Source of the DNA: Patescibacteria group bacterium
GTDB lineage: Bacteria; Patescibacteriota; Patescibacteriia; SBBC01; CAIJZX01
Direction of reading: 5' to 3'
Length of the DNA: 64,000 bases
Assembly (NCBI GenBank): GCA_038065275.1
Contig: JBBTRH010000005.1
Coordinates: 103,195-167,194, forward strand
A model generated the notes under the pieces. That model saw only the letters and a program-made list of their open reading frames with translations. It was not told the origin of the DNA and made no database searches. Positions within the stretch are counted from its first letter, which is position 1. Each line of letters begins with the position of its first letter. This document shows, piece after piece, positions 1,507 through 62,349 of the stretch. A program made the translations under genes and the position numbers.

Positions 1507-1676
1507 CCCGTTAGAAGTTTATAAAGTTATTGGGAACTTGATTCACGGACTGGTGACGGCCTAGCCCCGCCGCTGGATTACATACATAAGTCCATGTGAA
1601 CCGCCAGTGGTTAAAAGGGAGAACGGTCGTTGTTAGAAAATAATTTGTCATATAATTTTTCCAAACTTCTAACGGG
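1507..1676. repeat. Inverted-repeat module 1: 14-bp perfect arms CCCGTTAGAAGTTT (1507..1520) and AAACTTCTAACGGG (1663..1676) around a 142-bp AT-rich spacer
   Basis: Arms are exact reverse complements. pilT stop TAA at 1678..1680. pilC ATG at 1504..1506 abuts the arm. Confidence 0.8.
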
Positions 1677-1677
1677 G

Positions 1678-2750: not shown

Positions 2751-3143
2751 TTAGCGCCGTGATTTCAGTTGACGTTTAATCTTGTCCACCACTTCGGACG
2801 GCATAAAGTGGGCTTTGATCAAATAGTCGGCCGCCCCGAGGTCGAGTCCCTGGCTGACGTCGCCTTTCTGGCCCAAATTCGTCAGCAGGATGACCGGCAC
2901 GTCGCGCAGTTGCGGGTCGCCCTTCATCCGGCGCAGGACGTCGAAGCCGTTCATCTTCGGCAACAGGATATCGAGCAAGATCAGGTCCGGCCGCAGTGAT
3001 TCGGCTTTGGCCAGTCCGGCGGCCCCGTCCGTGGCCAGTTCGACTTGGAAATGCTCCATCGTCAACTTGGTGACGTACATACCGGCCAGAAAGGTGTCGT
3101 CCTCGATCAGGAGGATGATGGGTTTGGTGCGGGTGGTAGGCAT
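2751..3143 (-). CDS. single-domain response regulator (CheY-like receiver, PilH/PilG-like)
   Basis: 130 aa. IILLIEDD...D..LPKMNGFDVLRRMK receiver motifs. Embedded between pilB and pilT. Confidence 0.8.
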   Translation of the reverse strand: MPTTRTKPIILLIEDDTFLAGMYVTKLTMEHFQVELATDGAAGLAKAESLRPDLILLDILLPKMNGFDVLRRMKGDPQLRDVPVILLTNLGQKGDVSQGLDLGAADYLIKAHFMPSEVVDKIKRQLKSRR

Positions 3144-6864: not shown

Positions 6865-7036
6865 CCCCGTTAGAAGTTCATTTAGTAAATCGAATTTCCA
6901 CTCGCGAACAGCCGGCTACCCAACCCTAACGCTGGGAACCGCGCCAAGTGCCTTGTTAGCGGACAGAGGTTGGGGACAGAATTTTCATAACTAATTGACA
7001 ATATTTCCATATTATTTTTCTGAACTTCTAACGGGG
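6865..7036. repeat. Inverted-repeat module 2: 16-bp perfect arms CCCCGTTAGAAGTTCA (6865..6880) and TGAACTTCTAACGGGG (7021..7036) around a 140-bp AT-rich spacer
   Basis: pilM stop TAA at 7037..7039 directly abuts the right arm. pilN ATG at 6862..6864 directly abuts the left arm. Confidence 0.85.
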
Positions 7037-8101
7037 TTAGGTCGGGAGCAGTTCACGCATGGCCAGGCCGATGGCTACCGCGAAGCGCGGGCCGATTTCC
7101 TGCAGGGCCGGTTTCAGCTCGACCGGATAAACTACCCGCGCCCAGGGGTCGCCGATGAAGGTTTTGATGGACAAGGTTTTTTCCAGGTAGGCCGGCAGGT
7201 TGAGCAGGAAGGCCGAGCCGCCGCTGAGCACGATGCGCTGAATCGGCCCGGCCCCTTGCGAGCGGTAGAGGTTAAGCACGAACCGAATCTCGTTGACGAT
7301 CGAACTGATGATGAACTCGACCGTCTTCGGCACTTGCGAGACCTGGCTCTGGCTGACGCTGAGGCCGAAGTCGCGTTTGAATTGCTCGGCCCGGCCGTGG
7401 TCGACGTTCAAGCTCTGGGCAATCGATTTGGTCATGGTGTTCCCGCCGACGTCGATCGAACGGTTGATCAGCGGGATGCCGTCAACCACCACCGCGATGT
7501 CGGTGGCCATGGCCCCGATGTCGACGATCATCACCGGCGCCGGATCGGTGCCGATCAACGACCGTTCGAGCGCCAAGGCTTCGGTTTCCAAATCGACGAT
7601 CTGCAGACCGGCGGCTTTGAAAATGTCGATGTACCGCCGGACCAGGGTTTTCGGAGCGGCGGTGATCAGGACGCGGAGGTTCTTCGGCGCCGCCGGACCG
7701 GCCGGCGCCGGGTGGGTGTCCTTGAGCAGTTTCCAATCCAACACCAGCTCATCGATCGGCATCGGCACGAATTTCTTGGCTTCCCAGCGGACGGCCGAGT
7801 TCAGCTCCTTGCGGTTCATCAGCGGCAGACTGATGATCGAGCTGAAGACGGTGAAACTGGGCAGAGCGGCCACGGCCCGGGTGGTCGAGACTTTGGCCTC
7901 GTGCAAGACCGTTTTTAAAGCGTTGGCCGCGGCCTCGCGGCTGGTGGCGGCGTCATTTTTGACCACGTCGGTCGCCTGCTCGATGTACCCGTAGGTCATC
8001 AGTCGCGGCCGCTGGTTATCTAACCCAAGTTGGACCGCCTTAATGCCGAAGGTCCCGATATCGACGCCGACGAAGCTTTGTTTCGGATTGAATGTTGCCA
8101 T
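7037..8101 (-). CDS. pilM: type IV pilus assembly protein PilM (actin-like ATPase)
   Basis: Likely start MATFNPKQSFVGVDIGTFGIKAVQL at 8101. The longer ORF to 8275 runs through inverted-repeat module 3 and is not believed. Confidence 0.75.
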   Translation of the reverse strand: MATFNPKQSFVGVDIGTFGIKAVQLGLDNQRPRLMTYGYIEQATDVVKNDAATSREAAANALKTVLHEAKVSTTRAVAALPSFTVFSSIISLPLMNRKELNSAVRWEAKKFVPMPIDELVLDWKLLKDTHPAPAGPAAPKNLRVLITAAPKTLVRRYIDIFKAAGLQIVDLETEALALERSLIGTDPAPVMIVDIGAMATDIAVVVDGIPLINRSIDVGGNTMTKSIAQSLNVDHGRAEQFKRDFGLSVSQSQVSQVPKTVEFIISSIVNEIRFVLNLYRSQGAGPIQRIVLSGGSAFLLNLPAYLEKTLSIKTFIGDPWARVVYPVELKPALQEIGPRFAVAIGLAMRELLPT

Positions 8102-8164
8102 AGGCCAGGTTCCCGAGCGTTTGTCCACATCGGGCCGCTTAGAAACGATTTTTGAAGCTGTTTG

Positions 8165-8173
8165 AATATAGCA
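8165..8173 (-). promoter_or_regulatory. extended -10 element TGCTATATT (minus strand), about 60 nt upstream of pilM
   Basis: Minus-strand TTTTGTGCTATATTCAAAC. Same TGcTAyAnT motif as four other promoters in the window. Confidence 0.4.
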
Positions 8174-8215
8174 CAAAAAGGGCTTGCCGTCAAAATTCGC
8201 TTCCTTCGGTTCAAA

Positions 8216-8314
8216 CCCCGTTAGAAGTGGGATAAATTTGTAGAAGCTGGTATCAAATAATCCGCTAAATTCCAAACAATTACAAAAAGAATGTTTCGGC
8301 CACTTCTAACGGGG
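8216..8314. repeat. Inverted-repeat module 3: 15-bp perfect arms CCCCGTTAGAAGTGG (8216..8230) and CCACTTCTAACGGGG (8300..8314) around a 69-bp AT-rich spacer
   Basis: Flanked on both sides by TCAAA. Here the module sits upstream of the pilM promoter, not abutting an ATG. Confidence 0.8.
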
Positions 8315-8334: not shown

Positions 8335-8455
8335 GTGTCGGCGTGTAATTGGTGTTGGTTACCGCTATCACTTCCCCCTCGGCTTCGCCGTATCCCCCTT
8401 CTGAATTCAGAAGGGGGACGCCAGGGGGAAGTGGCAATCTCCCCCAGCGCTTCCA
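8335..8455. repeat. 110-bp structured repeat, copy 1 (nested palindromes CACTTCCCC..GGGGAAGTG and CCCCCTTCTGAATTCAGAAGGGGG)
   Basis: About 93% identical to 40025..40145. Lies between the 3' end of the 1449-aa surface protein gene and the pilM promoter. Confidence 0.8.
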
Positions 8456-8466
8456 GGCACCGGCCC

Positions 8467-19950: not shown

Positions 19951-22542
19951 GTGGACGCATCTATAAACATGGACGATCTCAAACCCGACATCCTGGCCAA
20001 GTTCACGGCTCACCTCAACAGCGCCCTGACCTACGCGGCGGAGTTGACCGTCGAGCTGAAAAACCGCTATGTCAACCCCGAACATCTGCTGTTCGGCTTG
20101 GCGGAAACGAAAGGCGGCGTGGCCCACGAACTCCTGCGGAAGTCGGGCGTCAAACTCGACGCCCTGCGCGATTTAATTTCCGTGCGCAATGAACCGTTGA
20201 CCAAGCCGGGCCTTAGCCTGACCTTAACTGACGTCAAGTTTTCCCTGCCCGCTAAACGCGTCCTGGAAAAGGCCGTCTTGATCGCCGCCAACTACCACCA
20301 CAAGTACGTTGGGACCGAGCACGTGTTCGCTGGATTGCTGGAAATCGGCGACCCGACGCTCGAACAAATCATGAAGGAAAACGGCTTGAACGTCCGCGAA
20401 GCGAAACGCCAATTGGTCAGCGTCCTCAATAATACCTCGAAATTTCCCGACCTGGCCGGGTTTTTCGAGGGCGGATCCGAACCAGCTCAGCCGGAAGAGG
20501 CCATCGTCGCCCCCGGCGGGCCCGGCCGCCAGCCCGGAACCGGCCAGCATCCGGCCCTGGAATTTTTCGCCACCGATCTGACCAATGACCAGGTGCAAAC
20601 GACCATTGATCCGGTCATCGGCCGCCAGCGGGAGATTGAACGCGTCATCCACATCCTGTCCCGCCGGACGAAGAACAATCCCGTCCTGATCGGCGATCCC
20701 GGCGTCGGCAAGACGGCCATCGTTGAAGGCCTAGCCAAAAAAATTCTCCGCGGCGAGGTGCCGGAAGCGTTGCAACACAAGCGTATCTTAGCTCTCGATT
20801 TAGGCTTAGTCGTGGCTGGCACGATGTACCGCGGCGAATTCGAATCGCGCTTGAAGCAGATTATCGACGAAATCAAGGCCGATCCGAGCATTATCCTGTT
20901 CATTGACGAACTTCATACCATCATCGGCGCCGGGGCCGCCTCGGGCTCAATGGACGCCGCCAACCTGCTCAAACCGGCCCTGGCCAAGGGACAGATCCGG
21001 ACCATCGGCGCCACCACCCTGGAAGAATACAAGAAACATATCGAATCCGACGCGGCGCTGGAACGCCGTTTCCAGCCGGTGATCGTCGACGAACCGTCGC
21101 CGGCCGACACCCTCAGCATCCTCAAGGGCGTCCGGTCGAATTACGAGAAGTTCCACCATGTGGCGATTTCCGACGAAGCCATCGACGCGGCGGTCCAGCT
21201 GTCCGTCCGTTATCTCCAAGACCGCTTCTTGCCGGATAAAGCCATTGATCTGATCGACGAGGCCGCCTCAAAGCTCAAGGTCAGCCGCGGCAGTTCGCCG
21301 CTGGCCAAACAGCTCCGCCAGCTGGAAGAGCAGTTGGCTGATTTACACCGCCGCAAGCACCAGGCCGTTCAAGCTGAGCAGTTCGACGAAGCGCTGACTC
21401 TCAAGCACGACGAGCAAGCGCTACGCCAGAAGATCGTCAAACTCGAAAATCGCGAGCGGGCCGGTCCGGTCTCAACGGTCGGCACCATCGGCCAGCGGGA
21501 CATCGCCGACGTGATAGCCCGGATAACTGGCGTGCCGGTCGCCGACCTGGTCCAATCAGAGCGGCAACGGCTACTCAACCTCGACACGTTACTGCAACAG
21601 CGCATCGTCGGTCAAGATGAAGCCTTGCACACCATTGCCGACTTTATCCGCCGTTCCCGCGTCGGATTGGCCAACCCGAATAAGCCGATCGCGTCGTTCA
21701 TCTTCCTCGGCCCCTCCGGCGTCGGGAAGACCGAGACCGTTAAAGAGATCGCCCGCACGGTGTTCGAGGATGCGAGCGCGCTGATCCGCATCGATATGTC
21801 CGAATTCCAGGAGAGTTTCAACATCAGCAAGCTGATCGGCGCGCCGGCCGGTTACGTCGGCTACAAAGAGGGCGCCAAACTGACCGACGCCGTTAAGCGC
21901 AAACCGTACGCGGTCGTGCTGTTCGACGAAATAGAAAAGGCCCACCCCGACGTTTTCAATCTTCTGCTCCAGGTGCTCGACGAAGGACATTTGACCGATG
22001 CGGTGGGCAAGCGCGTGAATTTCAAGAACACCATCGTCATCATGACCTCGAACATCGGCCTGCAGGGGTTCAACCAAGCGCAGTCGATCGGGTTCGAAGT
22101 AACCGACCGGCCGGCCAAGCGGAAACTCGACGATGACTACGCCGCGCTGAAGGAGCGGGTGCTGGAAGAACTGCGCCGGACCTTCCGACCGGAGTTCCTG
22201 AACCGCATCGACCAGACCATCGTCTACCGGCCGTTGGCCCTGGCTTCAGTCGAGAAGATCGTCGAGTTGCATATGGCGGAAGTTCAATCCCGCTTGGCTA
22301 AGCAGAAGATTAAAATCAAAGTCTCGACCACCGCCCGCAAAAAGATCGCCGCCCTGGGTTTCAGCCCCGAGTACGGAGCCCGCGCCGTCCGGCGCGTCAT
22401 CCAGGAACAGGTCGAGAACCCCTTAGCCGGCCTGTTGCTCAACGGACAGTTGAAAGACGGCCAGACCGTCCAGGTCGGACTCCACCAGGGGAAGCTGGTT
22501 TTAGCCCCGTTAGAGGCGTTGAAACGGAAGGTCAGTCGATAG
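19951..22542 (+). CDS. clpC: ATP-dependent Clp chaperone ClpC/ClpB family
   Basis: 863 aa. Clp-N repeats, two AAA+ modules ([16 protein letters not shown]), short middle linker. Start may be 19969 (MDDLKPD..). Confidence 0.85.
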
Positions 22543-22796: not shown

Positions 22797-23099
22797 ATGA
22801 GATGCGAACGACAATATTTCGTTTATATGATGGCTAGCGTCAATCGTCGGGCCTTGTATATTGGCGTGACGAATAACCTCATCCGACGCGTGCTTGAACA
22901 CAAACGCGGTGACGTGGCTGGTTTTACGAAACAATATCATTGCGTTGTCTTAGCTTGGTACGATGTAACCGACGACGTGGCGGGAGCAATTGATACAGAA
23001 AAACGAATTAAAAAATGGCGTCGCTCGAAAAAGAATGCCTTAATTGAAACGATCAATCCAAACTGGCTCGACTTAACGTCACAAATACTAGACGGGTAG
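22797..23099 (+). CDS. GIY-YIG nuclease superfamily small protein (UPF0213/YhbQ-like)
   Basis: YFVYMMASVNRRALYIGVTNNLIRRVLEHKRG matches the GIY-YIG core. Confidence 0.7.
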   Translation: MRCERQYFVYMMASVNRRALYIGVTNNLIRRVLEHKRGDVAGFTKQYHCVVLAWYDVTDDVAGAIDTEKRIKKWRRSKKNALIETINPNWLDLTSQILDG

Positions 23100-24084: not shown

Positions 24085-24360
24085 ATGACATATGTTTATT
24101 TCTTACTGCTAAATAATGGTACAATCTACAAGGGCGCGACCGAATCGGTTAAACACCGTCTCGTAGAACATCGCTCCGGCCAAGTCAAATCGACGAGAAG
24201 TTACCTACCAGTGGTATTACTCGGTTATGAAGCATACAAATTGTCCAGCGACGCTTATCGAAGAGAACGATTTCTTAAAACAACCGAAGGTCGCAGGTTA
24301 TTACGTCAACAGTACCGGGATATTATTCAGGAAGAAATTATCAAACTAAAAACAACCTAA
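24085..24360 (+). CDS. GIY-YIG nuclease superfamily small protein, second copy
   Basis: YVYFLLLNNGTIYKGATESVKHRLVEHRSG. Flanked by two copies of the tRNA-Ser 5' fragment. Confidence 0.6.
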   Translation: MTYVYFLLLNNGTIYKGATESVKHRLVEHRSGQVKSTRSYLPVVLLGYEAYKLSSDAYRRERFLKTTEGRRLLRQQYRDIIQEEIIKLKTT

Positions 24361-24375
24361 ATCCTATCCCAGAGC

Positions 24376-24395
24376 GGAGAGGTGGCCGAGTGGCT
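24376..24395 (+). pseudogene. second truncated tRNA-Ser 5' fragment
   Basis: CAGAGCGGAGAGGTGGCCGAGTGGCT repeated (compare 23974..24000). Confidence 0.5.
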
Positions 24396-24526
24396 ACCCG
24401 CCTACGCCTGCTGGCTTCGGCGGATCCATCCTATCTGATCTTTGTGAAAGGAGATGGAAAGGCGGCAGGTTGTCCCGCCCCCTTAACAACACACTAGGTA
24501 ACGAAGGCGGGATCCCGCACCGGTGC

Positions 24527-24617
24527 GGAGAGGTGGCCGAGTGGCTGAAGGCGGCAGGTTGCTAACCTGTTATAGGGGGTTAAACCCTTATCGCGAGTTC
24601 GAATCTCGCCCTCTCCG
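24527..24617 (+). tRNA. tRNA-Ser (anticodon GCT)
   Basis: Full cloverleaf read by eye. Acceptor GGAGAGG/CCTCTCC, anticodon loop TTGCTAA, long variable arm, T-loop TTCGAAT. No encoded CCA. Confidence 0.75.
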
Positions 24618-25148
24618 CTCTGGTGCGGTGACTAACCTGTTATACGGGGTTAAACCCGTCCGGTCATCCGACCGGACGTCAGGGGTTAATCCCTTGACGT
24701 ATCGTGGGTTCTCCGCCTCCGTACCGCTTCGGCGGCACTGCGGCGGATCCGTCCGAAGTTGCCGCAGTAACGGAGGCGGAAAATTCCACCCTCTCCGCCC
24801 TGGGATGGTAAAATACTAAATCCTAGTCCGGTCGGATGACCGGATCGCCCTCTCCGCTCTGGGCAATAACGTCAGTTTGCCGACCACTGCCGAGCACTCT
24901 CGGCGGGGCCCGCCCGAAGGCGGTGGGTGGTCTTCCGCCTACGTCTGTCGGACTTCGGCGGATCCGCCCTACTTGACCGAAGTGAGCGGAGGCGGAAAAA
25001 CGATGGTCTTGTCACCGCACCAGAGCGGAGGAGTGCCGGAGTCCCCGAACCACTAATGGGTTCGGGGCAGGGGTTGAACGGGGCAGTCTTGTCACCGCCT
25101 TTGGCGGAAGGTTGGCTGAGTGGTCTAAACACAATTCATGGGGAGAGC

Positions 25149-25235
25149 GGAGGCGTGCGAGAGTGGTTGAATCGGGCAGTCTTGAAAACTGCTAGACCCG
25201 CAAGGGTCTCGTAGGTTCGAATCCTACCGCCTCCG
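25149..25235 (+). tRNA. tRNA-Ser (anticodon TGA)
   Basis: Acceptor GGAGGCG/CGCCTCC, anticodon loop CTTGAAA, variable arm AGACCCGCAAGGGTCT, T-loop TTCGAAT. Confidence 0.65.
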
Positions 25236-25366
25236 CTCTCCTTGTGAGTCTTGCCCGGCGGAGCCGGGTCCGGCTCTGCCGGAAAAACCGGAATACCCGC
25301 AAAGGATATCGAAAATTCCCCGCCCGCCCTTCCTATCCCCCCCTTCTCGGTTCTCAGCCGCTTCGT

Positions 25367-25375
25367 GCTATACTA
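25367..25375 (+). promoter_or_regulatory. extended -10 element TGCTATACT
   Basis: 11 nt upstream of inverted-repeat module 4. Confidence 0.4.
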
Positions 25376-25385
25376 TCCTCATGGT

Positions 25386-25455
25386 CCCGTTAGACGGGGC
25401 CTCCGACAAGTTTTAAACAATATGCAAAAACTCGTTTCCTTAACCGTCTAACGGG
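25386..25455. repeat. Inverted-repeat module 4: 12-bp arms CCCGTTAGACGG (25386..25397) and CCGTCTAACGGG (25444..25455) around a 46-bp AT-rich spacer
   Basis: Right arm plus G abuts the ATG at 25457. Variant with GAC in place of GAA. Confidence 0.75.
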
Positions 25456-25456
25456 G

Positions 25457-25948
25457 ATGCCCGACCCCCAAGAACCGCGCGGCGACGTGCTGATGGAGTG
25501 GACCTTCCCTGAGTTCGTCCGCCACGACCGCGGCCGAGCCTGGTACGTGGCCTACGCCGTCATCACCGCCGGACTGATTGTCTTCAGCGTGATGTCGAAG
25601 AACTACACCTTCGTCATGCTGTTGGTGTTACTGACCCTGGTCCTGCTCATCCGCCTCCGCCGCGAGCCGCCGCCGGTTCGTTTCGCCATCCGCGATGAAG
25701 GCATCGAAGTCGGCCATGATTACCACCCCTGGCGCGAGCTCAAAGAATTCTGGATCATCTACCGGCCGCCGATCGTCAAGAAGATTTACTTCACTTTCAA
25801 AAGCGGCCTGCGGCCGGAAATTGATGTGTCCCTGGAAACTGAGAACCCGGTCCGCGTCCGGCAATATCTCAGCGAACGGTTGCTCGAGAACGCCAGCCGC
25901 GAGGAAGAGCCGGCCGGCGACCAAATCACCCGGTACCTGAAAATTTAA
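25457..25948 (+). CDS. hypothetical membrane protein
   Basis: 163 aa with two TM helices. Start abuts module 4. Confidence 0.5.
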   Translation: MPDPQEPRGDVLMEWTFPEFVRHDRGRAWYVAYAVITAGLIVFSVMSKNYTFVMLLVLLTLVLLIRLRREPPPVRFAIRDEGIEVGHDYHPWRELKEFWIIYRPPIVKKIYFTFKSGLRPEIDVSLETENPVRVRQYLSERLLENASREEEPAGDQITRYLKI

Positions 25949-38237: not shown

Positions 38238-38414
38238 CCCCGTTAGAGGTTCGACAAGTAAATTTTTAAGCAGTTGCGAACGTCTTGCCTGTCCACGCCT
38301 GAATGGAGATAGTTCTCACGAGCTCGCGCGTCTTTCATCGATTCGTCAACCTCGTCGTAAATCAATTTCATAAGTACATTGGTTTATTTCGTATCTCGGA
38401 AATCTCTAACGGGG
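38238..38414. repeat. Inverted-repeat module 5: 11-bp arms CCCCGTTAGAG (38238..38248) and CTCTAACGGGG (38404..38414) around a 155-bp AT-rich spacer
   Basis: PrgI-like ATG at 38235..38237 abuts the arm. The upstream stop is 6 nt from the other arm. Confidence 0.75.
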
Positions 38415-62319: not shown

Positions 62320-62349
62320 CCCATTAGAATGTTCTAGCTTCTAACGGGG
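62320..62349. repeat. Inverted-repeat module 6 (minimal): CCCATTAGAA-tgttctagc-TTCTAACGGGG hairpin between the MFS stop and the rsmA ATG
   Basis: Stop TGA at 62350..62352 and ATG at 62317..62319 abut the arms. One mismatch in the stem. Confidence 0.7.

Follow-up and report, generated by a model that had tools for sequence, protein, structure and literature searches.

The window analyzed here is a 64-kb stretch of a contig (JBBTRH010000005.1) from a Patescibacteria group bacterium, and our subject is a hairpin-forming element of 70 nt in it, which we call M4, that ends immediately upstream of a conserved gene for a 163-amino-acid (aa) membrane protein (25457..25948, plus strand). Orthologs of this protein and of PilC are from Candidatus Kerfeldbacteria within the Candidate Phyla Radiation (CPR)/Patescibacteria, and the flanking genes in the window are bacterial (type IV pilus PilB/T/C/M, ClpC, KsgA, PrgI, and pilins of a type IV secretion system). 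The 163-aa protein belongs to no Pfam family. Because its N-terminus, M[AP][DE]PQEPRGD, is kept across 14 aligned orthologs, we conclude that the ATG at 25457 is the true start codon.

The hairpin and the leaders of orthologous genes

On the plus strand, a predicted extended −10 promoter of the 163-aa gene, TGCTATACT (25366..25374), which is one of just three TGCTATAnT sites in the window, is followed by an 11-nt spacer (25375-25385), the left arm CCCGTTAGACGG (25386..25397), an AT-rich interior of 46 nt (25398..25443), the right arm CCGTCTAACGGG (25444..25455), a G at 25456, and the ATG. An earlier note, made from the sequence alone, had described this layout; the spacing, the loop, the right arm, and the start codon can be read directly from the sequence as it had stated, while the promoter box, which is indeed present, had been placed one base off at 25367..25375. 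The G+C content of the loop is 36% versus 57-59% for the genome. RNA folding gives the 12-bp stem as the centroid structure (minimum free energy −29.2 kcal/mol; z = −2.3), and 4 of 200 shuffled sequences reach equal stability. A lone perfect 12-nt inverted repeat with arms at most 200 nt apart is, by our estimate, expected ∼0.8 times per 64 kb and, thus, is insignificant on its own. The idea that the leader consists of one hairpin is essentially correct, except that the predicted transcription start is at ∼25381 and, therefore, 5 nt ahead of the left arm.

We compared 25 related loci carrying the 163-aa gene (loci are designated by L numbers). The box TGCTATACT or TGCTATAGT is conserved before the orthologs in L001, L002, L003, L013, L015, L024, L031, L032, and L034; its conservation before orthologs of 56-86% protein identity upholds its proposed role as a promoter. 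In L002, L003, L005, L011, L013, L024/L025, L031, and L032, an extended −10 element (TG(n)TAnnnT) lies 6-9 nt ahead of the ATG, and there is no hairpin. Because most orthologs have the −10 box at this distance from the ATG, we conclude that the 163-aa gene is normally leaderless; the longer N-termini of the database proteins P0007 and P0017 are read-through of that promoter. Four lineages have the module at this site, i.e., the window, its sister L033 (86% protein identity; contig cut within the module), L001 (78%), and L015, which is equivalent to L016 and L022 (56%), and it is absent in at least nine leaderless orthologs. In a neighbor-joining tree of the proteins, the module-bearing orthologs are scattered among module-free relatives, implying several gains or many losses. 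The copies in L001, L015, and L033 and a copy at L029 8387-8462 have interiors homologous to that of M4. Moreover, the arms covary between orthologous loci, as the GAC...GTC of the window corresponds to GAG...CTC in L015, which is a compensatory change.

All module-bearing leaders have an ATG 6-8 nt past the −10 element and directly before the left arm (25381 in the window, ATGGTCCCGTTAG in L015, and ATGAAATCCCGTTAG in L001), and this is the position of the start codon in the leaderless orthologs. As a separate observation, the ortholog in L034 (82% identity) has the TGCTATAGT box and a leader of ∼90 nt (∼2610-2709) that lacks the module arms and carries a small hairpin of its own (GGTTTCA..TGAAACC); it represents either a copy that has decayed or an insertion unrelated to the module.

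A dispersed repeat family with filled and empty sites

M4 has relatives elsewhere in the window, and it is the sequence shared with them that sets it apart from a chance repeat. The motif TCTAACGGGG, allowing at most one mismatch, occurs at 12 sites versus 4.05 ± 2.06 expected (0 of 100 shuffles reach this number), and besides M4, these sites form five inverted pairs, all on the minus strand. M1 (1507..1677; 171 nt) lies between a pilT-like gene and pilC in the order TAA/element/ATG and contains a bridging open reading frame (ORF) of 46 codons. M2 (6865..7036; 172 nt), located between pilM and the next gene, is a paralog of M1, to which it is homologous over the full length, and contains ORFs of 42 and 3 codons. 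M3 (8216..8314; 99 nt), which lies between direct repeats of TTTGA upstream of the pilM promoter (TTGACG-17-TGTGCTATATT), lacks an internal ORF. M5 (38238..38414; 177 nt) precedes a PrgI-like gene, has an ATG on both flanks, and contains a bridging ORF of 42 codons, while M6 (62320..62349), between an MFS gene and ksgA, is a minimal hairpin remnant of 30 nt with the direct repeat (G)ATGA(CCCCG). When the pil-operon loci of five relatives and the ksgA loci of two are included, the family comprises the six window copies plus 10 more at eight further sites in other Kerfeldbacteria loci. Copies range from 30 to 266 nt and have no transposase gene; likewise, there is no transposase among the window ORFs scanned, a genome-wide search not having been made.

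Comparing the same gene junctions between relatives, we found filled and empty sites. The M1 site between pilT and pilC is filled in the window and empty in L026 (TAA-CCATCACCC-ATG), L028, L029, and L030, and the M2 site is filled in the window and empty in L027, L029, and L030 (TAA, 1 to 5 nt, ATG). Conversely, the junction between pilB and the response regulator gene is empty in the window (TAA, 12 nt, ATG), while it holds an M1-like copy in L026 and a 76-nt M4-type copy with arms identical to those of M4 in L029. At the M6 site, the remnant of the window corresponds to a full 169-nt copy in L035 and an empty site in L036 (TAA-TCAC-ATG). The L026 copy aligns with M1 over its full length, and the three-way alignment with M2 has a mean column identity of 78%. 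Thus, copies that are nearly identical occupy gene junctions that differ from species to species.

Most copies lie between short direct repeats, i.e., TTTGA (M3), TTGA (L013), TACA (L027), TAA (L026), ATGA (M6 and L035), TGGA/ATGGAT (L014), ATG (M5), and ATG(G) (M4 and L015). Of the 15 copies scored, 10 have an ATG that starts 0-2 nt past the right arm; the left flank can be read in nine of these, and in seven of the nine a second ATG precedes the left arm at a distance of 0-4 nt. The simplest reading is that insertion occurred at a start codon and duplicated a short target that included the ATG. Copies ending 13-19 nt from an ATG (L026, L027, and L029a) are inserted beside a stop codon.

Based on an alignment of 13 copies, the 9-bp core CCCGTTAGA/TCTAACGGG (stem positions 2-10) is invariant or nearly so, the left core CCCGTTAGA being invariant in 12-13 of them. 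Stem positions 11-15 vary and yet stay complementary, with A:U, G:C, and C:G at position 11 and likewise at positions 13 and 14. Over 17 positions in the 13 copies, 83.7% of the cells are paired versus 75.2 ± 1.6% in shuffles, and this value drops to 34-50% when the partners are slid; the covariation score is 0.276 versus 0.119 in shuffles. None of 500 shuffles reaches either value. The complementarity of the stem is, therefore, clearly maintained, with pairing at the level of RNA or DNA.

Altogether, we consider it probable, at roughly two chances in three, that M4 is a copy of a non-autonomous element of Kerfeldbacteria, similar to a miniature inverted-repeat transposable element (MITE), that inserted at the start codon of a leaderless gene. 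The element agrees with a MITE in that it is small, ends in inverted repeats, has multiple copies, and is polymorphic for insertion; flanking repeats of 3-6 nt, as expected from target duplication, are present at most copies, not all. According to this model, M4 would have inserted at the start codon of the ordinarily leaderless 163-aa gene and duplicated the ATG. Because of this duplication, there would be an ATG at 25381, and the right arm would abut the ATG at 25457. The insertion would have given the gene a new leader of ∼76 nt that is able to fold as a hairpin, and the hairpin would be a DNA-level by-product of the terminal repeats. In gene-dense genomes, selection would purge insertions elsewhere.

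A few sequences resemble the family only in part or in other ways. A solitary left-arm-like site, CCCCGTTAGAGGC (22505..22517, plus strand), lies in the 3′ end of the clpC-like ORF; we found no partner arm for it, and it may be a chance occurrence or a remnant. A GC-rich family member of 266 nt in L029 (6362-6627) contains inverted repeats in its interior and an ORF of 80 codons. Fragments with the right end only, ..TCTGTCTCTAAGGATC-ATG and ..AAACTTCTAACGGGATAC-ATG, stand directly before gene starts, namely those of pilT in L029 (8872-8914) and of an MFS gene in L035 (2571-2641). In L028, the spacer between pilM and the next gene (2897-3013) holds a different insert of 117 nt with GCTAAC/CGAAT-like repeats, which is not the module. 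Searches against Rfam returned tRNAs only at gathering scores, and an E-value search of 24600-25560 gave chance-level matches only. We also considered integron attC sites, as the arms contain cores similar to GTTRRRY/RYYYAAC, and rejected them based on the core operon neighbors, the wrong order of the cores, and the lack of a cassette array.

Proposed translation across the element

The host appears not to rely on Shine-Dalgarno (SD) sequences: GGAG, GAGG, or AGGA is present at −20 to −4 in only one of the 27 ATG-start ORFs of the window compared with 9.6% of background windows. This fits with the report that the anti-SD motif is missing in a subgroup of Parcubacteria (PMC9297842). Genes within operons in the window follow each other closely, with the upstream stop codon 2-12 nt ahead of the next ATG. 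As a side observation, the second codon is biased to CCN or GCC (Pro/Ala) in 12 of the 27 ATG-start ORFs, many of which begin with ATGCC. Three other ways of reading the sequence before the ATG were discarded. The GGGG that precedes it would have a spacing of 0 nt as an SD sequence, and SD sequences are absent genome-wide. The right arm as the −10 element of a leaderless mRNA (TCTAAC/TTCTAA) lacks TAnnnT and is just 4-5 nt from the ATG. Finally, an archaeal-type promoter with leaderless translation (TATA-like box ∼25 nt before the ATG) disagrees with the bacterial genes and the conserved sigma-70-type extended −10 boxes.

The interior of M4 contains two small ORFs on the sense strand. The ATG at 25381-25383, 6 nt past TATACT, opens mini-ORF1 (25381..25416; 11 codons), which would encode MVPLDGASDKF, crosses the left arm, and ends with the TAA at 25414-25416. 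Mini-ORF2 (25422..25451; MQKLVSLTV; 9 codons) begins 5 nt past this stop codon, ends with the TAA at 25449-25451 within the right arm, and stops 5 nt short of the ATG at 25457 (P = 0.018-0.034 compared with shuffles). The 9-codon ORF is retained with the same end in L001, L015, and L033, the interiors of which differ in length and sequence, and L029a (8387-8462) has an 11-codon ORF with the same end. It is, therefore, misleading to say, as the earlier note did, that the module does not lie between two genes here; the mini-ORF opened at 25381 creates the order ORF stop, element, and ATG that is also observed for the intercistronic copies.

In the family as a whole, nine of 13 copies have a sense-strand ATG-initiated ORF that ends at the TAA of the right arm, 4-5 nt before the ATG of the gene; dinucleotide shuffling of the interiors predicts 2.7 (P = 1.4e-4; when related copies are counted once, P = 0.005). 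The L035 copy, read by eye, also has such an ORF. In the long copies, the ORFs (46 codons in M1, 42 plus 3 in M2, 43 in L026, 42 in M5, and 80 in L029b) span 72-90% of the element (P = 0.003-0.025 each), while the longest ORFs on the opposite strand are 0-1 codons in M1, M2, and M5, 13 in L029b, and 34 in L026. No ORF is present in M3, which lies outside a leader. The internal ORFs (3-80 codons) encode peptides that are not conserved between paralogs. A conserved small protein encoded in the loop was rejected, since frameshifts make the M1, L026, and M2 peptides differ beyond the first ∼11 residues. Thus, what is conserved in the interior of the element is its openness and not a protein.

Judging from these reading frames, translation could cross M4 by a termination-reinitiation relay. 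Transcription would start at ∼25381, and ribosomes would load on the 5′-terminal AUG at 25381 and translate mini-ORF1 to the UAA at 25414-25416. They would then reinitiate 5 nt further on, at the AUG at 25422, to translate mini-ORF2 to the UAA of the right arm at 25449-25451, and a second reinitiation, again 5 nt further on, would occur at the AUG at 25457. This mode of coupling would be the same as in the operons of this SD-less genome, and the hairpin would be melted by the translation of the mini-ORFs. Extending this scheme to the family, we tentatively speculate that the transposon is adapted to its SD-less host in that it inserts at stop and start codons and uses a bridge ORF to relay ribosomes, making it translationally transparent. 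Ribosomes arriving from an upstream gene or loaded on a leaderless 5′ AUG might conceivably be relayed over the insertion, similar to an intron that is transparent to splicing. Equally tentative is the corollary that both terminal repeats supply stop codons and that the only function of the bridge ORF is being translated.

Several observations weigh against insertion of a MITE-like element followed by a ribosome relay. No direct repeats flank M1, M2, L001, or the copy at L029 8387-8462; where repeats are present, their length is non-uniform (3-6 nt), and M4 itself shares ATG only. In the ∼0.55 Mb examined, we found no autonomous element or transposase with the module ends. Also, covariation in the inner stem is unexpected for a simple transposase-binding repeat, and there is no excess of G:U pairs on the sense strand (4 G:U versus 5 A:C), so that pairing at the RNA level is not favored over pairing at the DNA level. 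As for the relay, the gaps between mini-ORF1 and mini-ORF2 are 22 nt in L015 and 35 nt in L001, and the copies in L014, L026, and L027 do not use the TAA of the arm. Finally, pilM, which starts at 8101 (minus strand), has a 57-nt leader with neither an SD sequence nor the element; this organism can, therefore, initiate internally with no relay, and direct internal initiation at 25457 is possible on this precedent.

The pilM leader has features of its own. It is conserved over ∼57-65 nt behind TGTGCTATA(T/C)T in the window (8101-8175, minus strand), L027 (3571-3689), and L030 (3636-3753). The leaders in L027 and L030 carry TTTTCGAGCC...GTGTGGACAA...GCTCGnAAAA, of which the window retains the ..ATGTGGACAAACGCTCGGGAA.. 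part only. It may be a separate regulatory leader.

Alternative explanations, related elements, and implications

The earlier note had favored a self-contained leader or initiation element. Such an element would be a dedicated cis-acting hairpin, selected as such, that places the AUG at the base of its stem. This idea draws on the short distance between the right arm and the ATG in 10 of the 15 copies scored, the promoter directly before the left arm, the stem being the centroid fold, and the compensatory arm change in L015. However, the module is a dispersed repeat that occupies filled sites with flanking direct repeats and empty counterparts; it is missing from at least nine orthologous leaders, most orthologs being leaderless, and has no match in Rfam, which is not what is expected of a conserved cis-regulatory leader in a 5′ untranslated region. 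Because M3 sits upstream of the −35/−10 boxes of pilM and, hence, outside that leader, the module is not intrinsically a leader or initiation element; the L013 copy is likewise upstream of promoter boxes. In L026, L027, and L029, 13-19 nt separate the copies from the ATG, and the second ATG on the left flank in seven of nine ATG-abutting copies is as predicted by target duplication. We, therefore, regard a dedicated initiation hairpin as improbable. A different use of the fold, to which we assign the lowest probability of all, would be shunt-like, in analogy to the shunt of cauliflower mosaic virus (CaMV) or the bypass in T4 gene 60: the folded stem would juxtapose the upstream stop codon or mini-ORF with the downstream AUG, and the ribosome would cross the base of the hairpin, leaving the interior untranslated. 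In M1, M2, M5, M6, and L035, a gap of 0-6 nt separates the stop codon from the left arm, and one of 0-1 nt separates the right arm from the ATG; in addition, the mini-ORF of L001 stops at a TAG within the left arm. However, the 13-16-bp stem would no longer be folded once a ribosome occupied the stop codon, the long interior ORFs ending at the TAA of the arm would be left unexplained, and the mini-ORF of M4 crosses the arm and continues into the loop. Moreover, we know of no bacterial precedent for such a transfer besides gene 60, which we count against it.

Of the alternatives, we deem least implausible, while still unlikely, that the module is an exapted element for RNA processing or stability, similar to Correia or ERIC elements, the duplex of which is cut by RNase III or another nuclease or protects the 5′ end. 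The downstream mRNA would thereby be uncoupled or stabilized and possibly be near-leaderless from the foot of the stem. The perfect stems of 12-16 bp are predicted duplexes, copies lie within operons, and after a cut at the base of the stem, the new 5′ end would be 0-1 nt away from the AUG, as would suit leaderless translation. Against this idea, classical RNase III substrates have duplexes of ∼20 bp, longer than the stems here; the sense strand shows no excess of G:U pairs, and the sense-strand ORFs are not explained. RNase III is known to cleave Correia repeats (PMC10969869, PMC2649163) and is retained in CPR bacteria (PMC12641178). Such processing is compatible with, and not exclusive of, a MITE-like insertion. 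Somewhat less likely again is that the element moves by a hairpin or single-strand mechanism, as in REPIN/RAYT or IS200/IS605 systems, and not by cut and paste like a MITE; in that case, its conserved core would act as a recognition hairpin, with selection at the DNA level for complementarity of the stem. The covariation of the inner stem between copies, which is also a feature of REPINs, the wobble pairs without strand bias, and the failure to observe a DDE transposase with matching ends agree with this possibility. However, most copies have flanking direct repeats of 3-5 nt, which such systems do not make, and there is no gene for a Y1 transposase among the ORFs scanned, which cover part of one genome. 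On balance, insertion of a MITE-like element is the reading we prefer.

Among known elements, the module works most like Correia or ERIC elements within operons, while its compatibility with translation resembles that of Rickettsia palindromic elements (RPEs). Correia elements (CREE/NEMIS), which are MITEs of Neisseria, are ∼100-155 bp, have terminal inverted repeats and short target duplications, and lack a transposase; their many copies are intergenic or intra-operonic near gene starts, vary between strains, and are cotranscribed as hairpins (PMC2649163, PMC10969869). The module is similarly small, transposase-less, bounded by terminal repeats and short duplications, multicopy beside gene starts, and variable in presence. 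The two families are unrelated in sequence and differ in that the target duplication of Correia elements is TA, whereas the repeat flanking the module is of variable length (3-5 nt) and often includes ATG, TGA, or TAA. Further differences are that the termini of the module abut stop and start codons, its inner stem covaries, its sense ORFs end in the right repeat, and its host lacks SD-based initiation; RNase III cleavage or promoter creation would be putative properties of the module. ERIC/IRU and YPAL elements of enterobacteria and Yersinia are imperfect palindromes in transcribed intergenic regions of operons, with orientation-dependent effects and, in some cases, small ORFs (PMC10969869). 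They resemble the module as palindromic insertions with small ORFs between operon genes; however, they belong to another sequence family and phylum, and the effects of ERIC are on mRNA stability (RNase E) and not on translational coupling. RPEs are mobile palindromes of ∼150 bp that are compatible with translation by in-frame insertion (PMC10969869). They share with the module the combination of a palindromic mobile repeat and compatibility with translation; in contrast to the module, which lies between stop and start codons and has a separate ORF with an unconserved peptide, RPEs lie within coding sequences and join the protein.

REPINs are hairpin-forming doublets of repeats with a conserved core and compensatory changes in the stem that are found between genes. 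The module has the same three characteristics; however, REPINs depend on a RAYT and make no target duplication, whereas the module has direct repeats, and we saw neither a RAYT nor a Y1 domain in the ORFs scanned, which represent part of one genome. Termination-reinitiation and leaderless translation in mycobacteria, and shunting in CaMV by an upstream ORF plus a hairpin, are functional analogies for how an AUG may be reached without an SD sequence, with a short ORF that stops just before the next AUG and a 5′-terminal AUG on which ribosomes load; they are mechanisms and not sequence families. Our literature search identified no such family described in CPR bacteria; searches for MITEs together with translational coupling found nothing, and those for Patescibacteria together with leaderless translation found nothing relevant.

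Upstream of M4, the region between clpC and two tRNA-Ser genes is variable. It contains two stand-alone ORFs with a GIY-YIG nuclease domain (22797-23099 and 24085-24360, plus strand; 100 and 91 aa), while the syntenic region in L024 instead has genes similar to those of cyclic-oligonucleotide-based antiphage signaling systems (CBASS; SMODS/CD-NTase and Cap15) and a LexA-like gene. Around the tRNA-Ser genes (24360-25150), fragments of tRNA-Ser are repeated: a 5′ half, GGAGAGGTGGCCGAGTGG, is present at ∼24376, the 3′-end motif CCCTCTCCGC occurs three times (∼24610, 24790, and 24850), and GGGGCAGTCTTG occurs twice (∼25079 and 25174). These fragments look like remnants of integration or duplication at tRNA genes. 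The same region has a perfect 19-nt inverted repeat, TCCGGTCATCCGACCGGAC (24659-24677/24826-24844), the arms of which are 148 nt apart; its sequence is unrelated to the module, and it may be a second palindromic element.

The analysis of M4 leads to a conspicuous hairpin being reread as selfish DNA rather than as a regulatory leader, which matters for the annotation of CPR genomes. It documents a MITE-like family in Kerfeldbacteria, the genomes of which are very small and so gene-dense that insertions can persist only where genes meet. Filled sites and their empty counterparts represent natural before-and-after pairs, which show that the 163-aa family is normally leaderless and that operon genes are chained by the proximity of stop and start codons without SD sequences. 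If the relay by bridge ORFs is true, a mobile element and host translation would be accommodating each other, and the copies would be natural constructs for studying reinitiation without an anti-SD motif. Similarly, a translationally transparent transposon, if this is what the element is, would provide a handle on how start codons are chosen in CPR bacteria that lack the anti-SD motif.

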